Assembly (NCBI RefSeq): GCF_001017655.1
Contig: NZ_CP010904.1
Coordinates: forward strand, 1,830,001-1,862,000
DNA: 32,000 bases
From: Kiritimatiella glycovorans
GTDB lineage: Bacteria; Verrucomicrobiota; Kiritimatiellia; Kiritimatiellales; Kiritimatiellaceae
Direction of reading: 5' to 3'
Shown: positions 6,587-32,000 of the stretch, piece after piece
Layout of the letters: each line of letters starts with the position of its first letter
Position numbering within the stretch: the stretch's first letter is position 1
Program-made: the position numbers and the translations under genes
The notes under the pieces: model-generated
Databases searched by the model: none
What the model was told of the DNA's origin: nothing
The model's input: only the letters and a program-made list of their open reading frames with translations

Positions 6587-7067
6587 TGGTCATTTGCGCC
6601 TTCGTCGCGTCATTTGTATCCCATTCGGGGCCGGATTCCTTTACGCGGACTGTTGTCGGACCGATCGACTTGATGTAGGCGTTGAGTCTGCGGCCGAGCG
6701 TATCCAAAGCGCTACTCAGTTCCTGGAATGCCTCCTTCTCGATCAGGGATCGGTGGTGAGCTTTGTTGAGCCATGTTTTCGCTTCAAAGAGGGAACCTCT
6801 ACTGTAGTAGCCGTATTGCTTGTTCTCCTTGTGATGGAAACGTCCGAAGCCTTCGCTCAGATTCGCTGCCATCGAGTCTGCCGCCCGAACCCACTGCTTC
6901 CCCACTGTGTCCTTTGCGAAGAAATCCCACTTCGCGACAATACCCCACACCACTTCCCCAATCCGCATCGCCTCTTGATACACTTCCAGTTCTTCCAATC
7001 GCATTTCCATATCCTCCCTCCAATGACCAATGACGCGGGCGGAGCCCGCAAATGACCAATGACTAAT
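6574..7067 (-). mobile_element. Four-helix-bundle gene cassette bounded by ~45-bp imperfect inverted arms (IVS-like; no transposase)
   Basis: The left arm, 6574-6616, is GGTCATTGGTCATTGGTCATTTGCGCCTTCGTCGCGTCATTTG. The reverse complement of 7021-7067 is ATTAGTCATTGGTCATTTGCGGGCTCCGCCCGCGTCATTGGTCATTG. A deleted derivative with the same arms is at 31391-31517. Confidence 0.45.
6576..7010 (-). CDS. Four-helix-bundle protein (23S rRNA intervening-sequence protein / Avd-like family)
   Basis: MEMRLEELEVYQEAMRIGEVVWGIVAKWDFFAKDTVGKQWVRAADSMAANLSEGFGRFHHKENKQYGYYSRGSLFEAKTWLNKA is the characteristic motif set of this family. GGAGGGAGG lies upstream, and an alternative ATG is at 7004. The C-terminal tail and TGA stop lie inside the heptamer repeat. 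The track start at 7085 reads through the repeat and is rejected. Confidence 0.85.
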   Translation of the reverse strand: MEMRLEELEVYQEAMRIGEVVWGIVAKWDFFAKDTVGKQWVRAADSMAANLSEGFGRFHHKENKQYGYYSRGSLFEAKTWLNKAHHRSLIEKEAFQELSSALDTLGRRLNAYIKSIGPTTVRVKESGPEWDTNDATKAQMTNDQ

Positions 7068-7470
7068 CCCGCCGCGAAGCGGCAATACTAACCTGCTTGG
7101 CTCCGGCCAGCTTGCATTCGTCGATCACGTCCACCAGCGGCGAGGTACGAGCGTCGCCATCGGCCAGAATAATCACAGGCGATTCCTTCTCTCGGAGTTG
7201 ACGTGCCACAACGCCGCGTACGCCGTTGACGCCGATCTCGCGTCCCCCGAACACGACCCTTCCGTCAGCCGTCAGCGCAATCATGATGCTGTGTTTGTCC
7301 ATGTCCTGAGCGCTCGCCGCCTGGGGCTTCTGGATCTCGACGCCGGTCTCCTCAACGAAAACCGTCGTCACGATGAAGAAGATCAGCAGGAGGAACACGC
7401 AGTCGATAAGGGGCGACATGTTGACCTCGACCCCACGTTCCGCCTGTTCGCTCAACGTGACGCGTTTCAT
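7063..7470 (-). CDS. exbD: ExbD/TolR-family biopolymer transport protein
   Basis: NMSPLIDCVFLLLIFFIVT TM helix followed by a periplasmic domain, 135 aa. Its start has a 4-nt overlap with the end of the preceding exbB-like gene. The TAG stop lies inside the repeat (GAT TAG TCATTGG). Confidence 0.9.
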   Translation of the reverse strand: MKRVTLSEQAERGVEVNMSPLIDCVFLLLIFFIVTTVFVEETGVEIQKPQAASAQDMDKHSIMIALTADGRVVFGGREIGVNGVRGVVARQLREKESPVIILADGDARTSPLVDVIDECKLAGAKQVSIAASRRD

Positions 7471-8105
7471 CGTTCCGTACCTTCTGTCTCATATTCCAGA
7501 GTCTGTAACGCATGGCTTCGACATTCCGCGATGACCACATGGGCGTTCCGCAGCATGCGCTGCAAGCGGGCCAGTCCGAATACGCCGGGCAAGGCGACCA
7601 CAAGCCCGAACTGGGTCGTGATCAAGGCCTGGCTGATACCGGCAGCCACGCGTGTCCCCGTGTTGCCGCCGATAGCCGCAACCGCATCGAAGGTTTGAAT
7701 CATGCCCATGACCGTTCCCAGCAGTCCCAGCAATGGCGCGATGGCAGTCAAAGCCGCCAGCACAAGAACATCCCGCCGCATAAGCTCCATGCATTCGTTC
7801 TCGCGTGCCGCGAATGCTTCTCGGGGCGCTGCCCCGCCAAGCACGTCGGTCACCGCCGCCGAAACCATGGTCGCGATTCCGCCGGGGATTGCGCGCAACC
7901 CCTCGACAAGAGGGCGCGCGGGCCCGCCCAACGCGCCACTGTGTAGCGCGTTCCTCACGACCTTGCCATCACGAATCGTTCGGGCCAGCAACTCGCGCGA
8001 ACGCAGGAACAGCCCCCAGATTCCGAGGCACACGATCCCGATAGGCAGCAGCAACGGCCCGCCCGCTCCCCAGTACGCCACCGTCTGTTCGAGCCATTCG
8101 TTCAT
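7467..8105 (-). CDS. exbB: MotA/TolQ/ExbB proton-channel protein
   Basis: LTAIAPLLGLLGTVMGMIQTF...ISQALITTQFGLVVALP signature; 212 aa. It has ATGA-type overlaps with both neighbours. Confidence 0.9.
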   Translation of the reverse strand: MNEWLEQTVAYWGAGGPLLLPIGIVCLGIWGLFLRSRELLARTIRDGKVVRNALHSGALGGPARPLVEGLRAIPGGIATMVSAAVTDVLGGAAPREAFAARENECMELMRRDVLVLAALTAIAPLLGLLGTVMGMIQTFDAVAAIGGNTGTRVAAGISQALITTQFGLVVALPGVFGLARLQRMLRNAHVVIAECRSHALQTLEYETEGTER

Positions 8106-9502
8106 CCGTCGATGCCTCGCACCTTGATATCGTTCACGATGCCCACGGCTGCGCGTTCAAGCGCACCGATAATGCCGCGAGCCCGCCGTGCCAGGAAGGC
8201 ATGCACAAGCAAGACCGGGATCGCAATGGCAAGGCCCGTCTCGGTCGTGACAAGCGCTTCAGAGATGCCGCCGGAGAGAAGCTTCGCGTCACCCGATCCA
8301 AAGATCGTGACAAGCTGGAACGTATGAATCATGCCCGTCACGGTTCCGAGCAGGCCCAGCAAAGGCGCAATGCCGCCGAGTACGGCCAGTGTGCCCAGAT
8401 TCCGTTCGAGCCGGGGCAGCGATGTGAGGACATGTTCATGCATGATCTCTTCGAGATGATCGCGCGGCGAGTCGCGGTGCTCGATGGCTTCCTCGACGAG
8501 CGACCGTAACGGCGGCTTGATTCCCGACGCCGCCTCGCGGGCCGCAGCCGTATCGCCCCGTCTTGCGGCTTCAATAGCGACAGCAACATCTTTGCCGGGT
8601 TGCACTCGGATGCCGCCAAGCTCCACGGCTTTCCAGATTGCCAGGGCGACAGCGATCACTGCCACGACCAGCAACGGAATCATCACGAAGCCGCCCTTCC
8701 TGACATGCTCCAGAAATGTCGGTTTTGCATCGGCGACCTTGATTGCATCACCAGCGGTGACATCTATCGGCACGCGTGCAGCGTCACCGGCCACCAGGGC
8801 CCGGATAGCGGCCGTCTGTGTGTCCGGGATGCGATCGTAGATCGCGGGTTGCGTCGCGCCGAACTGGGTCACCGCCAGACCCGTGGGGCCGTCGCCATCT
8901 GCGTCGAACCAGGCCACCGGGCCAAGCGTCGCGAAGCGTCCCTGTCGTTCGATCCCGTTGCCATCCAGGGCGACCCCGTCAAACAGGCATCCCCCGAACC
9001 GCTCGGCATTCCAATCCTCCGACAGCGCGAGCAGATCGCCGATGGCCTTAGCGAAACCGTCCGTCGTCTCTTCTGTTGCCAACGTCGTCTGTACAGGACG
9101 CAGTCGTTCGACAAGCCGCGCGCCTTCGGCTGCTCCGACCCGCGTTTCCATAGCACGGGCATATTCGACGAAGAGAGCGATCAGGAAATGGCATTCCTCT
9201 TCCACCGCAGTCGCTTCCGCTTCCAGCGCGGCCTGCTCCTTCTCCCCCTGGGTCCTGAGCCGCCGGATTCGTTGCACGTCGGCGCGGCGTTGTTTGACGG
9301 TGGCTTGCAGGGCCTCCAGTCGCTCCGCCAACGGCCGCCGCTGCTCCGCGATTCGCGCGCGAAGCTCGTTCAGTTCCTGGGTATCCCTCTCAATGTCGGC
9401 CTTCGCTTGAAGAACGGCGGACGACACCGTGTCGGGTTCCGATGAAACCGCTCCATCCGCCAAAACCGGGTGAAGAAGCGCGAGAAAAGCAAACCCACAC
9501 AT
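8102..9502 (-). CDS. Large MotA/TolQ/ExbB-family protein with a long coiled-coil periplasmic N-domain (TtpC-like)
   Basis: The C-terminal part reads GGIAPLLGLLGTVTGMIHTF...ISEALVTTETGLAIAIPVLL. The N-terminal ~300 aa are coiled-coil. I prefer the start MCGFAFLALLHPVLA at 9502. The track start at 9580 adds 26 residues encoded entirely by the repeat element (see findings). Confidence 0.8.
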   Translation of the reverse strand: MCGFAFLALLHPVLADGAVSSEPDTVSSAVLQAKADIERDTQELNELRARIAEQRRPLAERLEALQATVKQRRADVQRIRRLRTQGEKEQAALEAEATAVEEECHFLIALFVEYARAMETRVGAAEGARLVERLRPVQTTLATEETTDGFAKAIGDLLALSEDWNAERFGGCLFDGVALDGNGIERQGRFATLGPVAWFDADGDGPTGLAVTQFGATQPAIYDRIPDTQTAAIRALVAGDAARVPIDVTAGDAIKVADAKPTFLEHVRKGGFVMIPLLVVAVIAVALAIWKAVELGGIRVQPGKDVAVAIEAARRGDTAAAREAASGIKPPLRSLVEEAIEHRDSPRDHLEEIMHEHVLTSLPRLERNLGTLAVLGGIAPLLGLLGTVTGMIHTFQLVTIFGSGDAKLLSGGISEALVTTETGLAIAIPVLLVHAFLARRARGIIGALERAAVGIVNDIKVRGIDG

Positions 9503-9572
9503 GGCCAATGACCTGCCTTCGCCAAGGCTGCGGCGGAGCCGCCAAATGACCAATGCCCAATGCCCAATGACT
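9503..9572. repeat. Heptamer-hairpin element with two hairpins (GCCTT CGCC AAGGC and GCGGC GGA GCCGC) plus AAATGACCAATGCCCAATGCCCAATGAC
   Basis: Read directly. It lies between the DUF3450-like gene and the TtpC-like gene. Confidence 0.9.
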
Positions 9573-9576
9573 CCTC

Positions 9577-10356
9577 TCATGGCTCCACCTCCTCGGCGAC
9601 CTGCATGGGAAGCACTACGAGCTGCGCGGTCTCCTGCCGGTTCAGAGTGTCAATCGCACGTCGAACGGACTGCCCGTCTCCAGTGGATGGCGTCCATGTC
9701 CAGCCCGCATCGGCGGGTACTCCCACCGCAGCCCAATCGTTCCCCGGGGAAACCGCGAACGCTCGTGCCAGCCCGACATAGAGCACGTCCACCCGTCGAC
9801 GTTCGCCCTCGACATCCAGTGTCTCGCGTGTCGCATGGAATTGGTTCTGGAGTGTCTCGATCTGCGTGTAGAGCGCCGCCACGGTCTGAGCTCGCTTCGT
9901 CAGCGGCAGTCTCTCCGCTTCCGTCTGCGTCGAAGGCAGTGCGTCGAACCCGGTGACCGACGCCATCAATCCCGACGGTATCCGTGTGCGCCATCGGCGC
10001 AAATCGGCCTCGGCGCGATCCAATACAGCGCGAAGCTTCAGAAGCTCGGCGTCCATGTGCTCTTTGCGCGCCAACGCTGCCGCACGCTTCCTCTCGACCG
10101 TTGAGGCGAACGTTTCGCCGTCGTCGATCTCCTCCTTGAGCGTCTTGGATTCCTGTTCGAGGAGTGCGATCTCTTCTTCCCACTGCTCCCGCCGTGCATC
10201 CCAATCGCGTTTCTCTTCTGCAATGGTTGTGCGTAGTGCCATCCAGCGGCCGACCAGCGCATCGAGCTGGTTCAGCGAGCCATCTCCTCCATCTGCCCGC
10301 GCCAGCCACGGAAGCAATATCATCCCCGCCAGCATTACTCGCCTTGCTCGTGTCAT
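9577..10356 (-). CDS. DUF3450-like periplasmic coiled-coil protein (TtpB-like first gene of the TonB2-type module)
   Basis: Signal peptide MTRARRVMLAGMILLPWLARA, then a long coiled coil, then a C-terminal ...VDVLYVGLARAFAVSPGNDWAAVGVP...WTW region typical of the family. It sits directly upstream of the TtpC-like gene. An alternative start is Met8 at 10335. The first ATG belongs to the repeat. Confidence 0.7.
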   Translation of the reverse strand: MTRARRVMLAGMILLPWLARADGGDGSLNQLDALVGRWMALRTTIAEEKRDWDARREQWEEEIALLEQESKTLKEEIDDGETFASTVERKRAAALARKEHMDAELLKLRAVLDRAEADLRRWRTRIPSGLMASVTGFDALPSTQTEAERLPLTKRAQTVAALYTQIETLQNQFHATRETLDVEGERRRVDVLYVGLARAFAVSPGNDWAAVGVPADAGWTWTPSTGDGQSVRRAIDTLNRQETAQLVVLPMQVAEEVEP

Positions 10357-10497
10357 TGGTCATGTCCTCGCTTTGCTCGTCATTGGTCATTTGCGGGCTT
10401 TGCCCGCGTCATTTGCTCACTTTGTTCGCGTCATCGGTCATCAGTCATTAGTCATCGGTTGTCTCCTCCATTGACCAATGACCAATGACTAATGACC
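10352..10497. repeat. Composite heptamer-hairpin array (GGTCATT-orientation units, then GGAGGAGAC, then AATGACC-orientation units)
   Basis: It contains GCGGGC TTT GCCCGC and the degenerate spacers CTCGCTTTGCTCG and CTCACTTTGTTCG. It is homologous in unit order to the array at 15213-15343. Confidence 0.9.
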
Positions 10498-15212: not shown

Positions 15213-15343
15213 ACTCGCTTTGCTCGTGTCATTGGTCATTGGTCATGTACTCGCTTTGCTCGTGTCATTTACTCACTTCGTTCGGGTCATTGGTCATTGG
15301 TTGCATCACGCGCCGCAGGCGCCAATGACTAATGACCACTGAC
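15213..15343. repeat. Composite heptamer-hairpin array
   Basis: ACTCGCTTTGCTCGTGTCATTGGTCATTGGTCAT occurs twice, followed by TCATTTACTCACTTCGTTCGGGTCATTGGTCATTGG, the hairpin GCGCC GCA GGCGC, and CAATGACTAATGACCACTGAC. It overlaps the ATPase stop. Confidence 0.9.
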
Positions 15344-17251
15344 CTCCAAATCCTCCAGATCCTCGCCTTCCCGAACGAGGCGAGCGGAGTTGACGATCAC
15401 GATGAACGTGCTTGCCGTGTGCAGCAGGACCGCGACGACGGGATGGATGATACCTGTTGCGCTCAAGGCGAGCATGCCGACCACGTACACGCTCGAGAAC
15501 ACTAGGTTCTGCCGCACCACGGAGGTCAGGCGGCGTGCCAGGTGGAAAAGGAAGGGAATACGATTCAGTTCGTTGTTCAGCAGAGCCATACGTGCCGCAT
15601 GGATCGCGGCTTCGCTACCAGCCGCACCCATGGCAATCGAAAGATCGGCTTCGGCGAGCGCCGGCGCATCGTTGATCCCGTCTCCGACGGCGGCAACAAG
15701 CCCCTCGTCGGCACGAAGACGCTTCACCGCATCCATCTTCTGTCCTGGGAGCAGTTCGGCGACCACATCCGTGAACGTCAGATGCCTGGCGACCGCCTCC
15801 GCCACAGGCCGGCGGTCTCCCGTCAACATGACACAATGCGACACGCCTTCATCCCTCAACTGGCCGACGACCTCGGAGGCACCGGGCCGCAACTCGTCTT
15901 CCAGGACTACCCGTCCGAGCAGGTTCCCGTTTTTTGCGATGAGAACCACGCTGCCCTGACGGTCGTCCTCGTCGGATTCAGATGCCATCTTGACGCCTGC
16001 ATCGATCAAGAACTCGCGGCGACCAGCCAACACCGTGTTACCACTCAAGACGCCACGGACGCCCCTGCCGGGCTCTTCCTCACAGTTCCGGATGTCGGCT
16101 GGGTGTATCTCTCGCTCTCGCGCGGCGCGCACAATGGCCTGTGCAGCGGGGTGGTTCGAATGCGCTTCGATGCCTGCCGCGAAACGCAGTAGCTCGTCCT
16201 CGGTAACTCCGTCGGCAGGTTGCAGGCCCACGACATGCAGACGCCCGCGAGTAATGGTGCCCGTCTTATCGAACACCACAGCCTTGATCCTCCCGGCGAT
16301 TTCGAGATCGGCAATGTTCTTGATCAGAATGCCCAGGCGCGCGGCGGCGCTGAGCGCCGCAACGGCCGCGGTCGGGCCGGAGAGGAGGATCGCGCAGGGG
16401 CAGGCCACAACCAGCATGGCAACCGTCCGATCCATGTCGCGTGTGAAGAAGAGCACGATGGAAGCCAGAATGAGCACCAGCGGCGTGTACCAGCCGGCGT
16501 AGCGGTCGACCAGACGCATGACAGGAGTGCGGGTGGCTTCGGCCTCCAGGATCAGCGAGCGCACTTGCTCGAGGGTTGTGTCCTGCCCCGCCCGTCCGAT
16601 CTCAACGTCCAAGACGCCCGTTACGTTCACCGTGCCCGCAAAGATGGAATCGCCTTCTCCCTTCTCAACGGGAAGGGACTCGCCGGTGATCGTCGCTTCG
16701 TTGAGCGTGCTTCGTCCTGCCACGATGATTCCGTCTCCCGGCACCAATTCCCCAGGCCGAACGCGGATACGCTCTCCGACGCTGAGCGCAGCCGCTTCCA
16801 CCGCTTCCTCTCCCGATGGCGTGATGCGGCGCGCCGATGCGGGGCGGAGGCGAATGAGCGCCTCAATGCTCCTTCGCGCGCCGGATGCCGAGCGGTCTTC
16901 GATCATGTTCGAGATCTGCACGAAGAACGCCACAGCGGCGGCAGTGAGATGCTCCCCGGCAGCAAACGCCGCACCGATTCCCAGCGCCGCCATGACGTTC
17001 AGATTGGGTCGGCTCAGAGCCAGGTCGCGCATGGCCGTTGCCACTAAGGGAAGACCCAGTACGACGGCGGCCGCTATTGCCACGATGTCCGCGTGGAACG
17101 GGTGCGCGAAGAGCCGCGACGCAATCAGAGCCGCCAGCAGCAGCATGCCGCCAAAGAGAAGAACGACGGTCCGCAGCGTAGCTGCAGGCCGATGAGCATC
17201 GCTGCTACCATTGGGGCTGGCAGATGGATTCTCTGAGTAGTCAGTTGTCAT
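15329..17251 (-). CDS. Heavy-metal-translocating P1B-type ATPase (CPC motif; no N-terminal HMA/CxxC domain)
   Basis: Motifs seen: TGESLPV (A-domain), VVACPCAILLSGP (TM CPC), DKTGTIT (phosphorylation site), HSNHPAAQAI (HP), MLTGD, GDGINDAPAL. Four predicted TM helices precede the A-domain. There is no GMxCxxC metal-binding domain. Confidence 0.95.
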   Translation of the reverse strand: MTTDYSENPSASPNGSSDAHRPAATLRTVVLLFGGMLLLAALIASRLFAHPFHADIVAIAAAVVLGLPLVATAMRDLALSRPNLNVMAALGIGAAFAAGEHLTAAAVAFFVQISNMIEDRSASGARRSIEALIRLRPASARRITPSGEEAVEAAALSVGERIRVRPGELVPGDGIIVAGRSTLNEATITGESLPVEKGEGDSIFAGTVNVTGVLDVEIGRAGQDTTLEQVRSLILEAEATRTPVMRLVDRYAGWYTPLVLILASIVLFFTRDMDRTVAMLVVACPCAILLSGPTAAVAALSAAARLGILIKNIADLEIAGRIKAVVFDKTGTITRGRLHVVGLQPADGVTEDELLRFAAGIEAHSNHPAAQAIVRAAREREIHPADIRNCEEEPGRGVRGVLSGNTVLAGRREFLIDAGVKMASESDEDDRQGSVVLIAKNGNLLGRVVLEDELRPGASEVVGQLRDEGVSHCVMLTGDRRPVAEAVARHLTFTDVVAELLPGQKMDAVKRLRADEGLVAAVGDGINDAPALAEADLSIAMGAAGSEAAIHAARMALLNNELNRIPFLFHLARRLTSVVRQNLVFSSVYVVGMLALSATGIIHPVVAVLLHTASTFIVIVNSARLVREGEDLEDLEVSGH

Positions 17252-17284
17252 TGGTCATGCACTCGCTCCGCTCTCGTCACTTGA
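17241..17284. repeat. Degenerate heptamer element (TCAGTTGTCATTGGTCATGCACTCGCTCCGCTCTCGTCACTTG)
   Basis: It resembles the CTCGCTTTGCTCG-type units at 10352-10385 and 15213-15275. It contains the ATPase ATG. Confidence 0.7.
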
Positions 17285-17592
17285 CGATGGCACGCCAGAG
17301 ACCACAGCCGCGTGAGCCACAGCCACGAGTGCCGACAATACGGCAGCCAGCCATGCGGCAGCCCACCGAAGCAGGGGCAGCCGCTCGCGCGGAAACGCCC
17401 CACAAGGCAGAACCACGTGTTTCCGCCGCGAGGTGCGGCCCTCCCGTTCTTGCGGCGGCGCAACGCTCACGAGTAGGCGATAGTGATCGTAGCGAGAATG
17501 GTCACAGCCAATTGGCCGCAACAGCTCCGCCGTGCCTGACTCGACGAGATCTTCGAGGAGGCACGTGGCAGCGGCAACAGAAATACGCAAGT

Positions 17593-17613
17593 GCGCCGCA
17601 GCATCCGCGGCGC
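17593..17613 (-). terminator. Candidate hairpin GCGCCGC-GGATGCT-GCGGCGC about 90 nt downstream of the receptor gene
   Basis: A 7-bp GC stem read directly from the sequence. It is followed (minus sense) by ACTTGCGTATTTCTGTT, which is only loosely T-rich, so it is weak as an intrinsic terminator. Confidence 0.2.
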
Positions 17614-17701
17614 GTAATGCATGCTTCCCAGCGGCGAATTGAAGTAGCTCTTGTTTCTTGTCCTGTTACCTGTCGCCGGTTGTTATCCGTCACCCCTCCT
17701 T

Positions 17702-19735
17702 TCAGAATCTCGCTTTGACCATTACCTTCACGTTGCGGCCGGGCTGATCGTTGAGGCCGAATCCCTGCCAAACCGAAGATAGATGATCCTGGTACAGCTC
17801 GTCGGTGAAGTTCTCGACCGCCGCGACGAAGCTCCACGTCTCGCCGAGATCGACGCCCATGCGCACATCGCCACGCGTGTACCCGTCGGTCTCGCGCTCG
17901 TTGGGGCCGGTCTTGTCCTGATCCGATGCGGTCAGCCCCGCCAGCTCGACCCATAGCCCGTTTTCCGCGCCCAGTGTCGCGTCGTAGCGCACACCGTAGC
18001 GGCCTTTCAGCGGCGGGATGCCCGGAAGGTCTTCTCCTGTATCGTCGTTCTCGCCACGCACATACGACACCGAGGCGAAGGTCGAGAATCCGCCGCCCAC
18101 GTCGTAGTCCACGCCGGCTTCCGCGCCGTACAGAGAGACCTCCGCATAGTTCATGTAGAGGTAGTTGCCATCGCCCTGGTTCTCCTTGACGATGTAGTCG
18201 TCGACCATGTTGTAGAAGGCGCTGACCATCGTTTGCAGCCGGTCGGTCCGGGTCTTCAGTCCGATGTCGAAGTTCCAGCTCGTCTCCGAATCGAGGTCGG
18301 GGTCTCCCAAATCGCTGCCGACGTCGTGCGGCCCGTCGAAGTACAACTCCAACAGGGTTGGTGCGCGGAATGCCCGGCCCACGTTGCCGTACAGATTGAT
18401 TTCGTTGCTCAACTTGTACAGCAGGCCCAGGTTGCCGCTCACCGCGCTGCTTTCGGAGGTCTCCTCGCCGGCGAGTTGGTGACGCGGGTGCCCGTCCGTC
18501 TGCGCCTCTATCCAGTCGGCGCGGAGCCCCGGTGTGACGACCCAGCGGTCGCCCAGAGCGATCTCGTCCTGCACAAATGCCCCAACGCCCATGCGTGTAG
18601 AGTTCGGGATGACCGGCACGCCGTCGAACTTTGGATGCGCCCACGAGGATGCGCTGTCTTGGATCGTGCGGTCAGACGTTGCGTCCTCATAGAACGTGTC
18701 CAGACCGAACGTCACGCGGTGCGTATCGTTGGGAACGAGCACGACCTGCGGCTTGAGCGTATAGGTGTCGATATCGAGCCAGATGTTGACATCCAGGTCA
18801 CCTCCACTGGCCTGAATCGGCGGCGGAAGCCCATCGACCTTGCGGCGGTAGCGATGCCGGTTATGCCGCTGCCAGCCGAAGTCGATGCTGAAACGCTCTG
18901 TTGCACCGGTGAAGTCGTCGGCCTCGAAGCCGAGCGCAAGGCGATGGTGTTTCTCGCCCTTGAAGTAGTCCTCGGCAAAAGCAGCGGGAGCGGGGATCCC
19001 GATATCCGCCTCCATGAAGGAGTAGTCGGCATAGGTCTTCCATCCGTCGCCGATATAGTTGCCGCCACCCCAGAGGGTGTAGCCCTCGTAGAAGCTGTTC
19101 GCCAGTTCGCCTTCGGGAGTCTCGATATTGCCTGCATCCTTGTAGGTTCCACCGACATAGCCGTTGAACCGGCCTTGCCCGAACCGTAGGTGCGCCGACT
19201 CCTTCCAGCCATCAGTGGCGCTTTCGTACTGCACATCGGCCTCGCCGCCGAACCGTGCTTCGGGCCCGGTCTCCTCGTCGGCTCCCTTCGTGATGAAGTT
19301 GATCACCCCGCCGATCGCGTCCGAGCCGTACAGCACCGACGCCGGGCCGCGGACAACCTCCACTCGCTGGATCTGGGCCGGATCGAGCGAGAACACATGG
19401 TTTCCGCCGGGGCGCTGTTCGGATAGACGCACACCGTTGACGAGCACCAGTACGCGCTCACCGCTCAAGCCGCGGATGATCGGATGCACGCTGCCCGGTC
19501 CGGCGGTTACGACATCCACGCCGGGTTCTTTCAAAAAGATCTCGGCAACCGTCACCGCGATCTTCTCGTCAAGATCACGAGACTCCAGTAGGTTCACGGG
19601 CAGTGACGTGTCGAACGACTCCTTCTCGCTTCCGGTCGGTGTCACGACCACATCGGTGAGCGTGACGGTCTCTTGGGCAAAAACAAACGACGCGCAGCAC
19701 AACGCGGCTGCGACAAATATGGACATACTCTTCAT
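17702..19735 (-). CDS. TonB-dependent outer-membrane receptor
   Basis: Signal peptide MKSMSIFVAAALCCASFVFAQE. TonB-box-like LTDVVVTP. Plug motifs IRGLSGERVLVLVNGVRL and VEVVRGPASVLYGSDAIGGVINFITK. A long beta-barrel ends in ...NVKVMVKARF. GGGGAG lies 9 nt upstream of the ATG at 19735. The track start at 19768 lies in the repeat. Confidence 0.95.
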   Translation of the reverse strand: MKSMSIFVAAALCCASFVFAQETVTLTDVVVTPTGSEKESFDTSLPVNLLESRDLDEKIAVTVAEIFLKEPGVDVVTAGPGSVHPIIRGLSGERVLVLVNGVRLSEQRPGGNHVFSLDPAQIQRVEVVRGPASVLYGSDAIGGVINFITKGADEETGPEARFGGEADVQYESATDGWKESAHLRFGQGRFNGYVGGTYKDAGNIETPEGELANSFYEGYTLWGGGNYIGDGWKTYADYSFMEADIGIPAPAAFAEDYFKGEKHHRLALGFEADDFTGATERFSIDFGWQRHNRHRYRRKVDGLPPPIQASGGDLDVNIWLDIDTYTLKPQVVLVPNDTHRVTFGLDTFYEDATSDRTIQDSASSWAHPKFDGVPVIPNSTRMGVGAFVQDEIALGDRWVVTPGLRADWIEAQTDGHPRHQLAGEETSESSAVSGNLGLLYKLSNEINLYGNVGRAFRAPTLLELYFDGPHDVGSDLGDPDLDSETSWNFDIGLKTRTDRLQTMVSAFYNMVDDYIVKENQGDGNYLYMNYAEVSLYGAEAGVDYDVGGGFSTFASVSYVRGENDDTGEDLPGIPPLKGRYGVRYDATLGAENGLWVELAGLTASDQDKTGPNERETDGYTRGDVRMGVDLGETWSFVAAVENFTDELYQDHLSSVWQGFGLNDQPGRNVKVMVKARF

Positions 19736-19759
19736 CTTGAAATTCTCCCCTGTTGGTAG

Positions 19760-19994
19760 ATTGGTCATTGGTCATTTGGCCGCTGCGCGGCCGTCATTGG
19801 TGATTGGTCATCGGTCATTGGCCATTGGTCATTTGCGCCTACGGCGCGTCAATAGTCATTGGTCAATAGTCATTGGTCATTTGCGCCTGCGGCGCGTCAT
19901 TGGTCATTGGTTCTGGGTCATTGCCGCGAATGACTGATGACTGCGGGCGAAGCCCGCAAAATGACCAATGACTAATGACGCGGCCGAAGGCCGC
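19760..19994. repeat. 235-bp array of five heptamer-hairpin units (three in one orientation, then two inverted)
   Basis: Hairpins are GGCCGC TGC GCGGCC, GCGCC TAC GGCGC, GCGCC TGC GGCGC, GCGGGC GAA GCCCGC and GCGGCC GAA GGCCGC. They are separated by runs of GTCATTG / AATGAC heptamers. The array fills the whole gap between the small Cys/His protein gene and the receptor gene. Confidence 0.9.
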
Positions 19995-19995
19995 C

Positions 19996-20391
19996 TCAGG
20001 CGGGAGGTCCGCAGGAGAAGGGCAGGAGGCGCGGGGTCTTGAAATCCGGCTGACTTGGTACAGCCGGCAGGGCGATCTCGACAGGTGCGAACTGCGGCAA
20101 GGCGATTGCCACAACCGCCGTATCGACAGGAGTCTTCGCGAGCTGACAGATCGAGCAGGTTGACGGGTCGTGCGGCTTCCTTTGCGGGTGAGAGTCGCGC
20201 GAACGCTCGGGCGTCTCGTGGCCGTTCGCGTGCTCCCGCGAGTGGTCGTGCGAGCAACAAGAATGACGGACACCTTTCGCAATGTCGTCGTCGGCACAGG
20301 CCAGCTCCAGCCTGTGCATGGCGGGAACAAGCAGTGTCCCCACCACGAACAGGAGCAAGCCACCGATTGCCAGTTGTCTTCTCTCTGTCAT
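19996..20391 (-). CDS. Small Cys/His-rich exported or membrane-anchored protein (131 aa; possibly DUF2946-like)
   Basis: N-terminal hydrophobic helix (LAIGGLLLFVVGTLLVPA). Motifs HSCCSHDHSREHANGHE and STCSICQLAK. Codon third positions are strongly G/C. It is the first gene of the receptor/ATPase train and a paralogue of 23008..23400. Confidence 0.55.
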   Translation of the reverse strand: MTERRQLAIGGLLLFVVGTLLVPAMHRLELACADDDIAKGVRHSCCSHDHSREHANGHETPERSRDSHPQRKPHDPSTCSICQLAKTPVDTAVVAIALPQFAPVEIALPAVPSQPDFKTPRLLPFSCGPPA

Positions 20392-20497
20392 ACACAAAAC
20401 AAACGCGCTCTATCTCAACCAAGTTTGGGGCGCCTAACATACAACCAGCTACGGCAGGGGTCAATCCCAAATGGCGTGTGGCAAGCGGCATGAGAAG

Positions 20498-21691
20498 TGT
20501 AATGTGAAATGCCGCAGGTATAGGAGAGAGCGTTCCATGCCGTGGTTCGCTATCCTTTGTGGTCTTACAACAGGACAACAGAGGAAGGAGACGGCATGGA
20601 ACAGAATCAGAATAGCAGGAAGGGCAAGCACTTGACGAGGGTGGAGCGCATGGTGATTGAGCGGATGTCCCGTGGGGGGATCCCCCCACGGGACATCGCG
20701 GCCGCCTTGGAGCGTCACCCGCGTACGATCCAGCGTGAGCTCAAGCGCGGGACGGTGACCCACCGGGACTCGGAGTGGCGGGAATACCGGACCTACAGCA
20801 GCGATCGCGGCCAGGACCTCCATGATTACCACGCCACCGCAAGGGGGCCCGGTCTGAGGCTGGGCCGCAACTATGCGCTGGCCGAATTCATCCGTTGCCG
20901 CATTGTGGAACATAAGGAATCGCCCGATGTAGTCGCCTTTCGGATGCGTCAGGCCGGTCTGGAGGAGGTGGTGTGCACCAAGACGATCTATAACTACATC
21001 GATAAAGGCGTCATTTTCGGGCTCAGCAACGAGTCACTGTGGGAGAAGCGTAAGCGAGCCAAGCGGCGCAAACGCGGCGCTCGGCGGTTGGCGAAGCGGA
21101 TTTCCAAAGGCAAAAGCATCGACCAGCGTCCCGAAGGAGCCGAGACGCGCGAGGAGTTCGGACACTGGGAGATGGACCTGGTGACCGGCCCCACGCGCGG
21201 GTCCAATGCCGCCCTATTGACCCTGGTGGAACGCAGACATCGGATCACGATCATTCGCAAGCTGCCTGATAAGAGCCAAGCCAGCGTGCTCAAAGTTCTC
21301 AGAGGGCTCGAGCGTGAACATGGCTCCCGCTGCTTCCGTCAGATCTTCAAGACCATCACGGTCGACAACGGCAGCGAGTTCCTGGACTTCGAAGCCTTAG
21401 AAGCCTCTTCCTTCTCGAAGCAACAGCGAACCCAGATCTTCTACGCCCACCCATACTCATCCTGGGAACGCGGATCGAACGAGAACGGCAACAGGATGAT
21501 CAGACGGTTCGTGGCCAAGGGCCGGGATATCGCGCGCTTTACCAAGCAGAAAATCCGCGACATCGAGCTATGGATCAATAACTACCCGCGCCGGATCCTC
21601 GACTTCATGACCCCTCACGAACTCTTCACGAACGAACTCAAAACGATCTCATAAATGAAACAAGACCACTACATGCGGCATTTGGTTTACA
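20498..21691 (+). mobile_element. IS30-family insertion sequence
   Basis: A single DDE transposase ORF. Imperfect terminal inverted repeats are TGTAATGTGAAATGCCGCAGGTA (20498-20520) and the reverse complement of 21669-21691, TGTAAACCAAATGCCGCATGTAG. The boundaries are approximate. Confidence 0.75.
20596..21654 (+). CDS. IS30-family transposase
   Basis: An N-terminal HTH region (LTRVERMVIERMSRGG, RTIQRELKR). DDE-domain motifs GHWEMDLV, TVDNGSEF and PYSSWERGSNENGNRMIRRF. GGAAGGAG lies 5 nt upstream of the ATG at 20596. Confidence 0.95.
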   Translation: MEQNQNSRKGKHLTRVERMVIERMSRGGIPPRDIAAALERHPRTIQRELKRGTVTHRDSEWREYRTYSSDRGQDLHDYHATARGPGLRLGRNYALAEFIRCRIVEHKESPDVVAFRMRQAGLEEVVCTKTIYNYIDKGVIFGLSNESLWEKRKRAKRRKRGARRLAKRISKGKSIDQRPEGAETREEFGHWEMDLVTGPTRGSNAALLTLVERRHRITIIRKLPDKSQASVLKVLRGLEREHGSRCFRQIFKTITVDNGSEFLDFEALEASSFSKQQRTQIFYAHPYSSWERGSNENGNRMIRRFVAKGRDIARFTKQKIRDIELWINNYPRRILDFMTPHELFTNELKTIS

Positions 21692-21728: not shown

Positions 21729-21772
21729 ACCAATGACCAATGACGCGGCGAAGCCGCACATGGCTCATGACC
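21729..21772. repeat. Heptamer-hairpin element (CACCAATGACCAATGAC GCGGC GAA GCCGC ACATGGCTCATGACC)
   Basis: Read directly. Confidence 0.85.
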
Positions 21773-28357: not shown

Positions 28358-28367
28358 TGCAGGCCAC

Positions 28368-28431
28368 AAATGACCAATGACCAATGACTAATGACCAGTG
28401 ACCGCCGCGCAGCGGCCAAATGACCAATGAC
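28368..28431. repeat. Heptamer-hairpin element (AAATGACCAATGACCAATGACTAATGACCAGTGAC CGCCGC GCA GCGGC CAAATGACCAATGAC)
   Basis: Read directly. Its last ATG is the start codon of the TolC-like gene. Confidence 0.9.
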
Positions 28432-29773
28432 AAAAACCCGCACATTCGTGGCCATCGCGCTCCTGACCGTATGCTTATCGCCAGCCGAGGGAAGCAGCAC
28501 AAACCGTGTCCCGTCCCTTCCAACCTGGGGCGAGGCGGTCGGTAGGGCCGAGCTGGACGCGTGGATCGCGGCCGCCATGGTGGCTGCGCCTTCACTGGAC
28601 GCCGCGGAGCGAGCGGTACGCGTGGAGGCCGCGGGCGGCAGGGCGGCGCGTTCCGGGCGTTGGCCCGATCTCACGCTGGAAGGCGACCTGCGCGCCGGCC
28701 GGCGGAATACCGCGATGACCGGCGGAGAGACGCTTGACGTCGAATCCGTGGCCGCCCGCGCGTCGGCCGCATGGGACCTCGATGTCTTCGGGCGAGTGCG
28801 CGCCGAAGTCGGCGCCGCGCGCTTCGCGGAGCTGGCCGCCGACCACAGGCGGCGTGACCGCCGGATCGCCTTCGCAGCCGACATGGCGGAAGCGTACGTG
28901 CTGGGGCGTCTCTGGAACGACCGCCTTCGGATCCGTGACGAGGCCGTGGCGGCGCACGATGCCCTGGTCAGGTACGCGGACGGCCGAATGAAGGTAGGCC
29001 TGGCCCTGCCGGCCGAGCGCGACCGTCTCGAGGCCGAGCGACAGGCCGCCAGGCAGCAACGGGTACATGCGCAGGAAGAGATATCCGATCTCGACGCACG
29101 GTGGCGCTACCTCGTGCCGGAATACGAGGCGCCGGATCTGCACTCGCTTGGCGGCCTCTCGTCCGCCGAGCCTGTTTCCGCTCCGCCGGAGACGGCGATC
29201 CATGCGTATGCGGTGAATCGCCCGGATGTCCTGGCCGCGCACGCCCTCTGGCAGGCGGCGGGGGAAGGGGCGCGCGGCGCCGCGCGCAACCGGTTGCCGA
29301 CGGTGTCCGCCATCGTAACGGCCGAGGGCGAGGGCCCGTCCCCCGTTGACGAACCCGAAGCCTGGACTGCCTGGGCGGGCGTGCGCCTGTCCCTTCCCGT
29401 CCTGGCGCCGGGTCGTTCAGCCCAGGTAAACATCCGGCGGGAAGAAGCACACATCCAGGAGGCTCTGTTCGAAGAGACCGTGGCCCTGGCGATTCGGGAC
29501 ATCCGTCAGGCCTACGCGCGCCGACTCCACGCTGAACAGGCATGGCGTGCAGCGCAGGTCTCCGCCGACCGCCTGCGGGAGTCGTTCGAATCTTTCAAGC
29601 GCCAGTTCGAGCAAGGACGTGTGCCGGTTCCCACCGTCGAGCGCGCGAAGCTGGACTGGCTCGCCTCCGAAGAAGCGATGCGCGTCCGTTATGCGGAAGT
29701 CCTCCTGCGCCAGGTCGATCTCGTCCGTGCATGCGGCGGCCCAACAGACACGGCACTCCACTCCGGCAACTGA
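28427..29773 (+). CDS. TolC-family outer-membrane efflux protein
   Basis: Signal peptide MTKTRTFVAIALLTVCLSPA. The two-repeat helical/beta pattern is typical of the OMF family (LDAAERAVRVEAAGG...WPDLTLEGDL...; later PDVLAAHALWQAAGEGARGAARNRLPTVS). It is the last gene of the efflux operon. Confidence 0.85.
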   Translation: MTKTRTFVAIALLTVCLSPAEGSSTNRVPSLPTWGEAVGRAELDAWIAAAMVAAPSLDAAERAVRVEAAGGRAARSGRWPDLTLEGDLRAGRRNTAMTGGETLDVESVAARASAAWDLDVFGRVRAEVGAARFAELAADHRRRDRRIAFAADMAEAYVLGRLWNDRLRIRDEAVAAHDALVRYADGRMKVGLALPAERDRLEAERQAARQQRVHAQEEISDLDARWRYLVPEYEAPDLHSLGGLSSAEPVSAPPETAIHAYAVNRPDVLAAHALWQAAGEGARGAARNRLPTVSAIVTAEGEGPSPVDEPEAWTAWAGVRLSLPVLAPGRSAQVNIRREEAHIQEALFEETVALAIRDIRQAYARRLHAEQAWRAAQVSADRLRESFESFKRQFEQGRVPVPTVERAKLDWLASEEAMRVRYAEVLLRQVDLVRACGGPTDTALHSGN

Positions 29774-29806
29774 GCCAGGCGGAAGCACCGCGCGCGAACG
29801 CGCCCG

Positions 29807-30041: not shown

Positions 30042-31337
30042 TCATGATCTCTGCGCCTCTTCACAACCTGACAGCAGGTAACGCCAGGCGGGAATGGAGT
30101 TGGGTTCGGCCTCGGACAAACCCGGCGCATACTCGTGGTAAACCAGGTGTCCCCGTGCCTCGGGCCAAAGGGTCCTTCCGAACTCCATGACGTTCTTCTC
30201 GCGCTCGAATGCGGCATCGTCGGCCAGGCTCCAGCACGTGTTCGCAAACCAGGCGCCCTCGCCGTCGCACAGGTCGACTTCATGAGCATTCGAGTAGTAG
30301 TAGAGGTCCCGACGGCGTCGGCGAGCCTCCAGAAAGACGGCCGTCTCCAGCTTGTGGCCGACGTCGCGCTGGGGGTATGCCTTGAAAGCCGCGACGAGAC
30401 CGGGGTCGATCACATGCAACTTCTTGGGATTGTGCTCCTGCTTGCGCAACGACTCGTCGCGTTTCGGCACCATGAAGACCAGAGACGCATCCTTCAGGCA
30501 GCCGAGGTACTCGTGCAGCGTGTTCTTCGACACCGCCAACCCCAGCGATTTGAAGTCACGGTGTAGCTTGCTGACGTTGATCAGCGATGCCGTGTTCCGA
30601 AAGCAGTACCTTAACAGGGTTCGCATGACCTTCTCGTTCCGTACTCCATAACGCTCGACCACGTCCCTGAACAACATGAGCGAGGCGTACTCCTCCAGGA
30701 TCAAGGGGCGCAGCGGCGCCTCGGCGAGCACGATCTCGGGGAAGCCGCCCCATGTCAGATACTCGACAAGCTCCGCGCGCGCGCGGCTCTCGTCGCGAGC
30801 GCTGAACGAGGATATCTCCACCTCTCGAAACGAGAGAAACTCCCTGAAGCTCAGGGGAAACACCTCCAACGTGATGCTGCGTCCCCGCATTGCGGCAGAC
30901 AGGTCGCGGGCCAGAAGCCGGGAGGACGAACCGGTAACAAAGATCGATATATCCTCGGTATCTTTAAGCCGCCTGACCCAACGCTCCCAGCCGGGTACGT
31001 CCTGCACCTCGTCCAGAAAGAGGTAGGTCTTGCCGGAGGCCGTATCGGGGTACAACTCGTTCAGGCTGCGAAGCACAAGATCCAGTTCTTCGGCGCGCAC
31101 GGGGTGCAGGCGATCATCCTCGAAGTTCAAGTACACGAGCTGTCGCCGGTCCACGCCTTGCCGGACGAGCCGGTGCATGGCGTCGAACAGCAGGAACGTC
31201 TTTCCGGAGCGGCGCGGCCCCGAAAGCCCCACCACTTTGCCGGTGTCCGCCGGGAGAGATCTATCGCGAGGACGACAAACCGGCAATTCGCCTTCGATGA
31301 ACTGGCGCAACACATACTTCAGATTGTAACTGTTCAT
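30042..31337 (-). CDS. AAA+ ATPase with a DUF4143 domain (AAA_14 family), second intact copy
   Basis: VVGLSGPRRSGKTF (Walker A), YLFLDEVQDVPGW (Walker B), a DUF4143-like middle region, and a C-terminal YYYSNAHEVDL restriction-endonuclease-like motif. Confidence 0.9.
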   Translation of the reverse strand: MNSYNLKYVLRQFIEGELPVCRPRDRSLPADTGKVVGLSGPRRSGKTFLLFDAMHRLVRQGVDRRQLVYLNFEDDRLHPVRAEELDLVLRSLNELYPDTASGKTYLFLDEVQDVPGWERWVRRLKDTEDISIFVTGSSSRLLARDLSAAMRGRSITLEVFPLSFREFLSFREVEISSFSARDESRARAELVEYLTWGGFPEIVLAEAPLRPLILEEYASLMLFRDVVERYGVRNEKVMRTLLRYCFRNTASLINVSKLHRDFKSLGLAVSKNTLHEYLGCLKDASLVFMVPKRDESLRKQEHNPKKLHVIDPGLVAAFKAYPQRDVGHKLETAVFLEARRRRRDLYYYSNAHEVDLCDGEGAWFANTCWSLADDAAFEREKNVMEFGRTLWPEARGHLVYHEYAPGLSEAEPNSIPAWRYLLSGCEEAQRS

Positions 31338-31390
31338 AGCGACAATATAGATACTCCCGTCCCTTTATGCAAGGACAATCTCGCATCTCG

Positions 31391-31517
31391 TTGGCCATTT
31401 GCGGCTTCGCCGCGTCATCGGTCATGGGTATCCCATTCCGGGCCGTTTCCTTTGTGGGCCTCTCACTCATTCAATCGCACTCCCATATCCTCCCACCATT
31501 GGCCAATGACCAATGAC
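31391..31517 (-). mobile_element. Gene-less ghost of the four-helix-bundle cassette (both arms retained, interior of about 370 nt deleted)
   Basis: In minus sense, GTCATTGGTCATTGGCCAATGGTGGGAGGATATGGGAGTGCGATTGAATGAG aligns to the cassette 5' end, GTCATTGGTCATTGGAGGGAGGATATGGAAATGCGATTGGAAGAA. AAAGGAAACGGCCCGGAATGGGATACCCATGACCGATGACGCGGCGAAGCCGCAAATGG aligns to the cassette 3' end, AAAGGAATCCGGCCCCGAATGGGATACAAATGACGCGACGAAGGCGCAAATGA. Confidence 0.7.
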
Positions 31518-31612
31518 GGCCGCGCAGCCTGCCCGCATTGCCCGCCCGCAACGCTGGCGCGTAGCGACTGCGGGCAGGCTCCGCAAAGCGATGTAGGCGG
31601 GCGGCCAAATGA

Positions 31613-32000
31613 CTACTGATTACACTCCCGGCAAACACCCAGCACGGTGATCCGGTGCGCTCGCTGCTTGAAACCCGCCTTGCGGCAGGCGATGGCGATG
31701 CGCTGGTGGATCTTGGGGTCGAGGAACTCGATGAACTTCCCGCACTGCTCACAGATCAGGTGCTCATGGTCTTCGAATCCCAGGGTCCGGTCGTAGTGCA
31801 CCTCGCGACCGGCTTCGCGGATCTCGCGCAAGAGACCGGCACGAACCATCAGGCCCAAGGTCTGGTACACGGTGCCACGGCTCACACGGGCCGGGCCGGC
31901 ATTGCTCAGATCCATGGCAAGCTCCTCGGCCGTGAAATGGCCGTCGCCTCTGAACACGCGATCGCAAACAATCCGGCGTGGCTGAGTGACCCGCAGACCC
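31613..32000 (-). CDS. Fur-family metalloregulator (Fur/Zur/PerR-type); the 5' end runs off the right edge
   Basis: Winged-helix part FTAEELAMDLS...VSRGTVYQTLGLMVRAGLL, the metal-site motif DHEHLICEQCGKFIEF, and a second CxxC (CRECN). The frame stays open to position 32000 (GLRVTQPRRIVCDRVF upstream of the track Met). The TAG stop is followed by TCATTTGGCCGC from a repeat. Confidence 0.85.
   Translation of the reverse strand, partial: GLRVTQPRRIVCDRVFRGDGHFTAEELAMDLSNAGPARVSRGTVYQTLGLMVRAGLLREIREAGREVHYDRTLGFEDHEHLICEQCGKFIEFLDPKIHQRIAIACRKAGFKQRAHRITVLGVCRECNQ

Follow-up and report, generated by a model that had tools for sequence, protein, structure and literature searches.

A 32,000-nucleotide stretch of the Kiritimatiella glycovorans genome (contig NZ_CP010904.1, positions 1,830,001 to 1,862,000; this whole stretch is called the window) contains many copies of a tandemly repeated heptamer, which reads AATGACC on one strand and GGTCATT on the other, is interleaved with small GC-rich hairpins and is found at the ends of genes. 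The favored explanation, to which a probability of roughly 60% is assigned, is that these arrays belong to a family resembling the STRRs (repetitive sequences that are short and repeated in tandem), that they fill and invade operon junctions, and that they take over dispensable terminal codons of the adjacent genes as a by-product. The sample comprised the 32-kb window of a genome of about 2.95 Mb and a handful of related contigs, and is thus a small census.

The base composition of the window is 62-63% GC. The heptamer AATGACC was found 34 times, compared with 2.78 expected copies, and its core AATGAC 64 times (11.3 expected). The longer sequence TAGTCATT occurred in eight copies instead of 0.25, four of which coincide with the stops of the exbD, TrmO, ATPase and Fur genes, while CAATGACA occurred in four copies instead of 0.59. 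Three of the latter are the proposed starts of the DUF3450, ATPase and TolC genes, and the fourth is part of the array ahead of a gene for a 714-aa Band7 protein, where it lies out of frame and one unit downstream of a candidate ATG. At more than 12 sites Tandem Repeats Finder detected arrays with a period of 7 and 2-6 copies. Clustering of the heptamer matches yielded 14 clusters in the window (Table 1), and each of the 14 was located at a gene boundary or, within a gene, at its extreme 5′ end. The names of the genes concerned are backed by Pfam (TonB_C, ExbD, two MotA_ExbB genes, DUF3450, TrmO_N, E1-E2 ATPase, OEP/TolC, and FUR), as are those of neighboring genes.

The element is composite, with tandem heptamers on both sides of GC hairpins that have stems of 5-7 bp and loops of 3 nt. 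In the GTCATT sense a module consists of GTCATT(T), a stem of 5-7 bp, the 3-nt loop, the return stem and GTCATT. Spacers were collected by their flanking hexamers alone, and about 19 of the 32 contained perfect hairpins. At least six different, fully compensatory stems were present (GCGGGC, GGCCGC, GCGCC, GCCGC, GCGGC, and CACGC/GCACGC), and the loop was always TNC, i.e., GNA on the AATGAC strand. Between units, at places where hairpins sit elsewhere, a second type of module was found that is not palindromic and reads CTCGCTTTGCTCG or T(A/G)CTCACTT(C/T)GTTCG; it was seen in the window (10366-10430, 15215-15285) and in the related contigs L003 and L015 (13190-13212 in the latter). The block ATGACCAATGACACGAGCAA(A/G)GCGAGTA(A)TG precedes both the DUF3450 gene and the gene for the 714-aa Band7 protein, in different frames. 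No Rfam family reached its gathering score anywhere in the window, and a scan for promoters and intrinsic terminators revealed nothing in the spacers, where terminator-like sites were absent.

The coding properties of the heptamer are opposite for its two orientations. The sequence (GGTCATT)n is translated to GHWSLVI and contains no stop codon in any of the three frames, so that an open reading frame (ORF) running into such an array has no place to end other than a variant unit; AGTCATT, a common G-to-A variant, yields TAG. In contrast, (AATGACC)n reads MTNDQ*P and contains ATG and TGA in every frame. An ORF that enters an array of this sense is thus closed within about five codons, and for a downstream gene two of the three frames offer an ATG of the array that is in frame, which in every case is part of TGA-CCA-ATG. 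Much of the pattern of starts and stops is therefore due to the sequence of the heptamer itself. Units with TAG are a general feature of the arrays: 13 of the 20 that are present in the window and the related loci are not gene stops. The orientation of the arrays was biased, in that all seven arrays directly after a stop codon were in the GGTCATT sense, while eight arrays ahead of a start codon were in the AATGACC sense. Exceptions were found in short spacers, where a single array serves both ends.

Several searches yielded related regions for comparison. A TrmO search with subsequent contig look-ups led to orthologues on L003 (98% identical) and L001 (86%), both with arrays, and to L004, a repeat-free syntenic operon. 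A genome scan with the large ExbB protein yielded nine metagenome-assembled genomes (MAGs) of the Planctomycetes-Verrucomicrobia-Chlamydiae (PVC) group, of which the closest, the Victivallales MAG L015 (68% identity), shares the repeat family at orthologous junctions; in the remaining eight of the nine it is absent from these. A metagenome scan for hairpin plus units yielded 19 contigs, and only L026, L019, L030, and L020 carried the family. L026 is a close relative, with about 85-88% nucleotide identity in coding regions, and covers exbB, exbD, a small IVP gene (see below) and tonB. Last, an ATPase search led to the repeat-free relative L035, in which the genes are ordered exbB-exbD-tonB-TPR-ATPase. 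On L019 (150-260) and L030 (1680-1728) GGTCATT arrays were found beside tandem AGTCGCA, AGTCTCA, GGTTATT, and GGTGTAT heptamers, indicating that several heptamer families coexist in some genomes.

The repeat-free relatives revealed what the junctions look like without arrays. The DUF3450/large ExbB junction is an ATGA overlap in eight of ten orthologues, the exbD/tonB junction and the junction between the ATPase gene and the next gene are ATGA overlaps in L035, and the exbB/exbD junction is an ATGA overlap in repeat-free relatives. At the last of these the window keeps the ancestral overlap, while L026 has about 135 nt of repeat in place of 17 nt. As a result of this insertion the exbB tail YETEGTER* became DGERALVIGQ-TAG, with the TAG in GGTCAATAGTCATTGG, and exbD received a new leader. 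The alignment of the window with L026 revealed neither a target-site duplication nor fixed element ends at the insertion. At other junctions the two sequences differ in the number of units and modules: after exbD one hairpin module is present in the window and four in L026, and before tonB three units in the window and at least four in L026. The IVP gene is terminated by a TAA variant unit in L026, and in the window it reads through the hairpin to an array TGA. At the end of TrmO the number of units varies between the window, L003, and L001.

Because the repeat-free relatives have ATGA junctions and L026 exhibits a fresh insertion, replacement of native termini by the repeat is supported by the alignments. 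A preliminary description of the window had left open whether the element targets gene boundaries with single-nucleotide precision or has repeatedly replaced native termini. Its eight statements about junction sequences were all correct at their coordinates. With regard to the two possibilities, the orthologue alignments agree with repeated replacement, namely of the TrmO and ATPase tails, the ATPase N-terminus, and the end of exbB in L026; single-nucleotide targeting found no support, a target-site duplication, a fixed length and defined ends being absent. The terminal codons held by the repeat are thus probably a by-product of the position and the spelling of the arrays, rather than the outcome of precise targeting.

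The junction between the DUF3450 and large ExbB genes exemplifies a further outcome, which the preliminary description had missed. The conserved ATGA overlap of DUF3450 stop and large ExbB start is retained (9580-9577), and the 69-nt insertion places 23 additional residues, VIGHWALVIWRLRRSLGEGRSLA, before the signal peptide MCGFAFLALLHPVLA. The large ExbB gene of L015 contains an in-frame array at the same place (9990-10030), with the TAG unit out of frame. Also missed were a possible Band7 start (see below) and the stops of the IVP gene and of orf111 (see below), both of which are TGA codons inside arrays. Many ATGA junctions of the window are still free of repeats.

The repeat ends had been proposed to supply the stop codons of four genes, and orthologue comparison upheld this for TrmO and ATPase and refuted it for exbD, with Fur as a candidate. 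The exbD stop (TAG 7065-7063 on the minus strand) is followed by TCATTGGTCATTTGCGGGC. However, ExbD ends at the same codon, after VSIAAxR(E/Q), in all seven repeat-free orthologues (six and L035; five with TAG, two with TGA), compared with VSIAASRRD-TAG in the window, and ExbD of L015, which has no repeat after it, also has TAG at this codon. As the seven repeat-free orthologues stop there, the repeat does not supply the exbD TAG; the TAG is ancestral, and the array merely begins at its last base. A hairpin GCCGC-ttcg-GCGGC in the last exbD codons was considered as repeat-derived and rejected, since the A-A-x-R codons are conserved in repeat-free orthologues.

The core of TrmO homologues ends with RGxRxY, which is followed by 0-12 variable residues. 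The tails of the three close orthologues, RSGH-TAG in the window, MGNGQ-TAG in L003 and GIGH-TAG in L001, all lie inside the array in differing registers, while TrmO of the repeat-free L004 ends with HPRA-TGA. By this comparison the last 2-3 codons and the stop of TrmO come from the repeat. ATPase homologues contain NSARLVREGE(D/N)LE and then 0-40 variable residues. The protein of the window stops early, with REGEDLEDLEVSGH-TAG and the repeat-encoded residues SGH, and in L035 the ATPase stop overlaps the ATG of the next gene; the alignment thus assigns the ATPase stop to the repeat as well. The common Ser-Gly-His end of TrmO and ATPase was confirmed to be repeat-encoded in both proteins and is due to the same 19-mer array variant, A(G/C)TGGTCATTAGTCATTG, a third copy of which is located upstream of TolC and ends no gene. 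The Fur gene ends with CAG TAG TCATTTGGCCGC (TAG 31615-31613 on the minus strand). Its ORF extends beyond the window, and only the C-terminus could therefore be assessed. The tail after the last CxxC comprises two residues and is the shortest in the alignment, in which the best homologues are at most 54% identical and none is close.

At the trmO stop the inverted arrays fold to a stem of about 25 bp with a predicted energy of -48.2 kcal/mol (z = -5.47). The inverted arrays at the 3′ ends of both trmO (10446-10497) and ATPase (15285-15344) form long stems that enclose the stop codon, and no U-run was found after either stem.

The start codons of four genes had likewise been assigned to the repeat, with the claim that no other ATG was sensible and that several of these starts lack a Shine-Dalgarno (SD) sequence. 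In tonB, TolC, ATPase and DUF3450 an in-frame TGA is present two codons upstream of the array ATG, and for the first three of these genes this means that they can only start at the repeat ATG. The assignment held for tonB, TolC and ATPase. In tonB no further start codon follows the in-frame TGA until the conserved FAPRWTW motif, ahead of which the N-termini of orthologues are variable. TonB of L026 has the identical start MTNDLSSFF in spite of a different number of units, and the TonB start of L015, MTNDQLPMTRATRANDLSPFF, lies within repeat sequence, too. In TolC the sole alternative, a GTG at codon 8, would drop the charged n-region MTKTR of the signal peptide. The next ATG of the ATPase gene codes for M36, which an alignment to 38 homologues places inside the first transmembrane helix, and a start there would truncate this helix; nevertheless, the gene call of the sequence source, P0121, starts at M36. 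The first approximately 25 residues are unrelated to the conserved N-terminus of the orthologues, MAHDF.K.M..EE, which indicates that the 5′ end of the ATPase gene has been remodeled.

For DUF3450 the assignment was only partly borne out. The proposed ATG (10356-10354 on the minus strand) leads to MTRARRV, a charged n-region as in orthologues, but a second ATG follows seven codons downstream. The spacer is nearly identical in L003, and the sequence makes the repeat ATG the probable start. The 714-aa Band7 protein aligns to its orthologue, the product of the L035 gene after ATPase, from residue 3-4, and its start at 15239, inside the array, is possible. The claim about missing SD sequences was confirmed for TolC and ATPase; DUF3450 has a modest one (AGGA at 8 nt) and tonB a weak and distant one (AAGG at 12 nt), and most other genes have GGAG-type SD sequences. 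The leaders in the AATGACC sense fold no better than shuffled sequences (z = +0.85 for TolC, and +1.17 and +0.21), and in the predicted fold the AUG is left single-stranded. Pairing of GGUCAUU with an extended 16S anti-SD sequence was considered and rejected, because it is too weak and contains one central mismatch.

The following sequence of events is proposed. The arrays would occupy intra-operon spacers and change quickly by gain and loss of units and modules, presumably driven by slippage or recombination, and they would invade tight gene junctions, typically ancestral ATGA overlaps. A gene with its 3′ end overrun by a GGTCATT-sense array would read on to the first in-frame AGTCATT unit and thus to TAG, and a gene with its 5′ end overrun by an AATGACC-sense array would take its ATG from the last or second-last unit, with the in-frame TGA ahead of this ATG also closing any upstream ORF. 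Only dispensable ends would be overwritten, i.e., variable C-terminal tails, the N-terminal cytoplasmic stub of TonB, and the n-regions of signal peptides. The arrays may persist through an action in the mRNA: the single-stranded AAUGACC arm could be an unstructured leader that permits initiation without an SD sequence, and the hairpins and inverted arrays could form 3′ stems with a stabilizing or processing role.

Several observations weigh against this proposal. In spacers that hold both orientations GGTCATT came first and AATGACC second in four of four cases. The TAG that ends a gene was located within the first 1-3 units in seven of seven cases, which is tighter than a passive model obviously predicts, and in four of the seven arrays after stops the repeat begins at the stop codon or overlaps it. 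The tonB-to-TPR spacer has the same layout in the window and in L015, i.e., the stop, about two units, a hairpin with a 3-nt loop, 2-3 units, a purine-rich SD sequence and the start, with differing stems (GCCGC in the window vs CACGC in L015) and flanking proteins that are 72-76% identical. An architecture that is kept down to about 70% protein identity suggests, as far as these alignments go, selection for some function, possibly coupling. Lastly, the use of the repeat ATGs as starts is inferred from the logic of the sequence alone. The layout conservation, the polar order and the folding data suggest a role at the RNA level.

One such role, which is considered unlikely as the general explanation, would be that the AAUGACC arrays are selected stop/restart cassettes for translational coupling, which hand terminating ribosomes to a downstream AUG without an SD sequence. 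Each unit contains AUGA, the units form overlapping MTNDQ* mini-ORFs in which each UGA overlaps the next-but-one AUG, and a GGUCAUU-sense array with a TAG unit would close the upstream gene. A coupling role has been suggested for cyanobacterial STRRs (PMC2670836), and the conservation of the array architecture in L015, the unstructured leaders, and the absence of an SD sequence from TolC and ATPase, with only a weak one at tonB and the GGAG type at most other genes, are in line with it. The geometry also fits at single junctions: TGA-CCA-ATG joins orf111 and ATPase, the tonB ATG precedes the IVP TGA by 8 nt, and an unrelated gene pair on L002, a TM1266-like gene and the next one, exhibits a ATGACCAATGA start/stop overlap that was called independently by the pipeline of the Joint Genome Institute (JGI). 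However, this stop/start geometry follows automatically from the sequence of the heptamer, the arrays contain competing out-of-frame AUGs 7 nt apart (only one of the three AUGs in the tonB array is in frame), and about 70 nt separate the lipoprotein stop from the downstream TolC start. Of the arrays, about half are in the GGTCATT sense upstream of genes that have their own SD sequence and start (IVP, TPR, and lipoprotein), and many ATGA junctions of the window do without a repeat. The TM1266-like pair (L002 390-405, L001 715-730) is joined by a two-unit array, and L001 has a mutation in the second of these units (AACGACC) along with a shifted upstream stop.

The status of orf111 matters for any stop/restart interpretation of the ATPase start. 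This ORF (17255-17700 on the minus strand, between the genes for a TonB-dependent receptor and the ATPase) contains a helix-turn-helix (HTH)-like stretch and a hydrophobic helix. It has no Pfam match, no ATG or GTG was found upstream of the HTH-like part, and its third-position GC content is below that of the neighboring genes. It is doubtful whether orf111 is a real gene, which counts against coupling at this junction; it may be a decaying gene.

A more elaborate version, which is judged to be quite improbable, would turn the AAUGACC arms into selected tracks for a ribosome relay along chained five-codon MTNDQ* mini-ORFs, with a GNA-triloop hairpin between the arms. Such a portable intercistronic cassette would close the upstream cistron, stabilize or process the mRNA and deliver ribosomes to its own SD-less AUG. 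If it were true, the relay would explain the persistence of the heptamer at orthologous operon junctions across PVC lineages and, by extension, would hint at a role of STRR-type repeats in other phyla.

Improbable to a still higher degree is a site-specific mobile element, similar to repetitive extragenic palindromic (REP) sequences with their REP-associated tyrosine transposases (RAYT) or to miniature inverted-repeat transposable elements (MITEs), that inserts precisely at stop codons, TA(G), or ATGA junctions and brings its own TAG and ATG ends. The repeat does start at the G of the stop TAG in exbD and Fur, the 19-mer A(G/C)TGGTCATTAGTCATTG is twice a gene end in its three occurrences, the recent insertion in L026 hit a gene junction, and single-strand transposases act on substrates similar to the stable GNA-triloop hairpins. 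But the element has no constant length and no terminal inverted repeats, the L026 insertion replaced 17 nt without a target-site duplication, and no GTAG or CGTC tag was found beside the stems. In the 32-kb window no RAYT or IS200-like gene is present, the only transposase being IS30-like. The distance between stop codon and array varies (0, 3, 5, and 18 nt), and close relatives differ in the number of units and modules, which is typical of slippage or recombination and not of transposition.

That the pattern is due to chance or to annotation, i.e., that longest-ORF calling extends genes into repeats while the real starts and stops are elsewhere, is hardly credible. Longest-ORF calling does place a start inside an AATGACC array in two of three frames whenever no stop intervenes. 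The TonB-dependent receptor exemplifies this: its likely start is ATG 19735, which is preceded by an SD sequence and followed by a normal signal peptide, and the array ATG 19768 is a longest-ORF artefact. The M36 start of P0121 would point in the same direction. However, the stop codons are unambiguous, and the alternatives fail at three starts, as tonB has no other start codon ahead of FAPRWTW, the ATPase would lose part of its first transmembrane helix, and TolC its charged n-region. Chance is excluded by the enrichment statistics. The invasion of operon junctions by an STRR-like family is the preferred explanation.

Heptameric intergenic repeats (STRRs, TAACTGA, and GGGAATC) have been known since 1990, when the STRR heptamers of cyanobacteria were reportedly described by Mazel et al. 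One Calothrix STRR unit reportedly reads TTGGTCA, a rotation of GGTCATT. The repeats of the window exhibit the properties of the STRR type, i.e., a tandem 7-nt unit, dispersal at gene ends with an orientation bias, and variation of the unit number between relatives. Cyanobacterial STRRs have been suggested to act in transcript stability or in the coupling of translation (PMC2670836). The TAACTGA direct repeats of Beggiatoaceae, Cyanobacteria, and Bacteroidetes (MacGregor, 2015, PMC4679880) are also tandem 7-nt units at many intergenic sites; they are oriented toward a start codon within a few nt, usually without an SD sequence. Their forward strand contains stops in three frames and overlaps 13 upstream stop codons, their reverse strand can be translated and occurs in proteins at the extreme ends only, and close strains differ by 7-nt indels (PMC4679880). 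In contrast to TAACTGA, the unit described here contains ATG and is itself the initiation codon, instead of being upstream of one, GC hairpin modules are interleaved, both orientations occur in polar order, and the host is a GC-rich member of the PVC group. The GGGAATC and GGGGA(T/C)T heptamers of Xanthomonas and Nostoc (Rehm et al., 2015, PMC4692102) are abundant and lie between co-oriented ORFs with a strand bias and within 50 bp of starts or stops, some overlap the stop codon, and their length varies extensively among close relatives. They form G-quadruplexes, while the repeat of the window is not G-rich, and a supply of start codons has been described neither for STRRs nor for GGGAATC repeats.

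Like REP sequences and bacterial interspersed mosaic elements (BIMEs), the modules are small GC-rich extragenic hairpins after stop codons, with alternating orientation and compensatory stem changes. They differ from these in the stems of 5-7 bp, in being embedded in heptamer arrays, and in the absence of a RAYT gene from the window; the stems have GTCATTT on one flank and GTCATT on the opposite one, and not the REP/BIME tags GTAG or CGTC, which abut imperfect palindromes of 20-40 nt. The arrays are heterogeneous in length and composition and exhibit none of the hallmarks of MITEs such as Correia elements, i.e., fixed length, terminal inverted repeats and target-site duplication. Rickettsia palindromic elements (RPE) and other MITEs can be tolerated in frame and then become part of a protein. 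The in-frame repeats in the large ExbB N-terminus and in the tails of TrmO, ATPase and L026 exbB are similar to this, but they consist of tandem units, lack a fixed length and terminal inverted repeats, and are found only at the extreme ends of genes. ATGA-type coupling junctions are resembled in that each unit contains ATGA and that stop/start overlaps or 3-nt gaps replace ancestral ATGA overlaps, and the expected geometry was found, with an upstream stop overlapping the downstream start or lying within a few nt of it. Unlike at these junctions, competing AUGs have been added, the cistrons are often 40-150 nt apart, and coupling is hypothetical here.

The literature searched yielded no mention of an AATGACC tandem in any rotation or of heptamer repeats in the PVC group. 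New are a unit with ATG that supplies initiation codons, the regular interleaving with GNA-triloop hairpins, and the PVC-group host. This variant is unusually informative in that both ATG and TGA are contained in its unit; its effect on gene ends can therefore be read directly from the sequence and compared with repeat-free relatives. The comparison reveals that such repeats remodel the N- and C-termini of housekeeping proteins and separate ATGA-coupled gene junctions. For annotation it follows that gene callers will misplace starts in such genomes, as in the ATPase call inside the first transmembrane helix. If the arrays promote SD-less initiation or coupling, they would be a compact natural intercistronic cassette.

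Table 1. Heptamer arrays and hairpin modules in the window (window coordinates).
Position	Strand	Location	Composition and gene ends
5861..5911	-	tonB-to-TPR spacer	TAA (5917-5915), AGA, (GGTCATT)2, T, hairpin GCCGC-tac-GCGGC, (GGTCATT)3; at the end purine-rich SD, then TPR start GTG at 5845
6574..6614	-	IVP stop and tonB start	AATGACC-sense array, decayed hairpin; IVP stop TGA 6578-6576, tonB start ATG 6586-6584
7020..7065	-	exbD-to-IVP spacer	exbD TAG 7065-7063, TCATTGGTCATTT, hairpin GCGGGC-tcc-GCCCGC, GTCATTGGTCATTGG; at the end SD GGAGGGAGG, then IVP ATG at 7010
9503..9571	-	after codon 3 of large ExbB gene	69-nt in-frame array and hairpin
10351..10449	-	upstream of DUF3450	AATGAC-sense arrays, GCGGGC hairpin, non-palindromic CGAGCAAAGCGAG modules
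10470..10497	-	TrmO 3′ end	GGTCATT-sense array; AGT GGT CAT TAG (10491-10489) TCATTGGTCATTGGTCAATGG
15227..15298	-	upstream of 714-aa Band7	AATGACC-sense arrays and modules; in-frame ATGs 15239 (in array) and 15212
15324..15344	-	ATPase 3′ end	GGTCATT-sense units and hairpin; GTC AGT GGT CAT TAG (15331-15329) TCATTGGCGCCTGCGGCGC
17247..17258	-	orf111 stop and ATPase start	two-unit array ATGACCAATGACA; orf111 stop TGA 17257-17255, CCA, ATPase start ATG 17251-17249
19760..19995	.	upstream of TonB-dependent receptor	largest cluster, about 19 units and 5 hairpin modules, both orientations
21729..21760	+	between IS30-like transposase gene and AAA_14 gene	(AATGACC)2 and hairpin GCGGC-gaa-GCCGC; touches neither start nor stop codon
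27715..27733	+	from 18 nt after FtsX TAG, upstream of SD of lipoprotein gene	GGTCATTGGTGATTGG units
28369..28432	+	upstream of and into TolC	(AATGACY)5, hairpin GCCGC-gca-GCGGC, AAATGACCAATGACA; TolC start ATG 28427-28429 in last unit
31380..31615	-	Fur 3′ end	Fur stop TAG 31615-31613, TCATTT, long GC palindrome; internally deleted IVP cassette (31391-31445, 31472-31510) with flanking units and hairpin

The IVP gene (6576-7010 on the minus strand) belongs to the 23S-rRNA-intervening-sequence-protein (four-helix-bundle) family; it separates exbD from tonB and is flanked by an array on either side. Another copy of the IVP cassette, with an internal deletion, is present between Fur and AAA_14; its 3′ end is accompanied by a hairpin and its 5′ end by an SD sequence and units. 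In L015 the exbD/tonB junction contains a small GIY-YIG gene, and in repeat-free relatives it is an ATGA overlap. The arrays may be landing sites for small selfish genes.

The GC skew changes its sign at about 18000-20600, where the orientation of the genes diverges as well, and the largest repeat cluster (19760-19995) and the IS30-like transposase gene (about 20596-21654) are located near this change. This region may be a replication origin or terminus, or a point of rearrangement. Replication-strand bias was considered as a cause of the array orientation and found no support, because arrays of either orientation are present to one side of the GC-skew switch. Elsewhere in the window, the stretch 2000-4000 has a GC content of 70% and contains long overlapping ORFs on both strands without a Pfam match, and a MazE-like antitoxin domain is encoded at about 1459-1680 on the minus strand.

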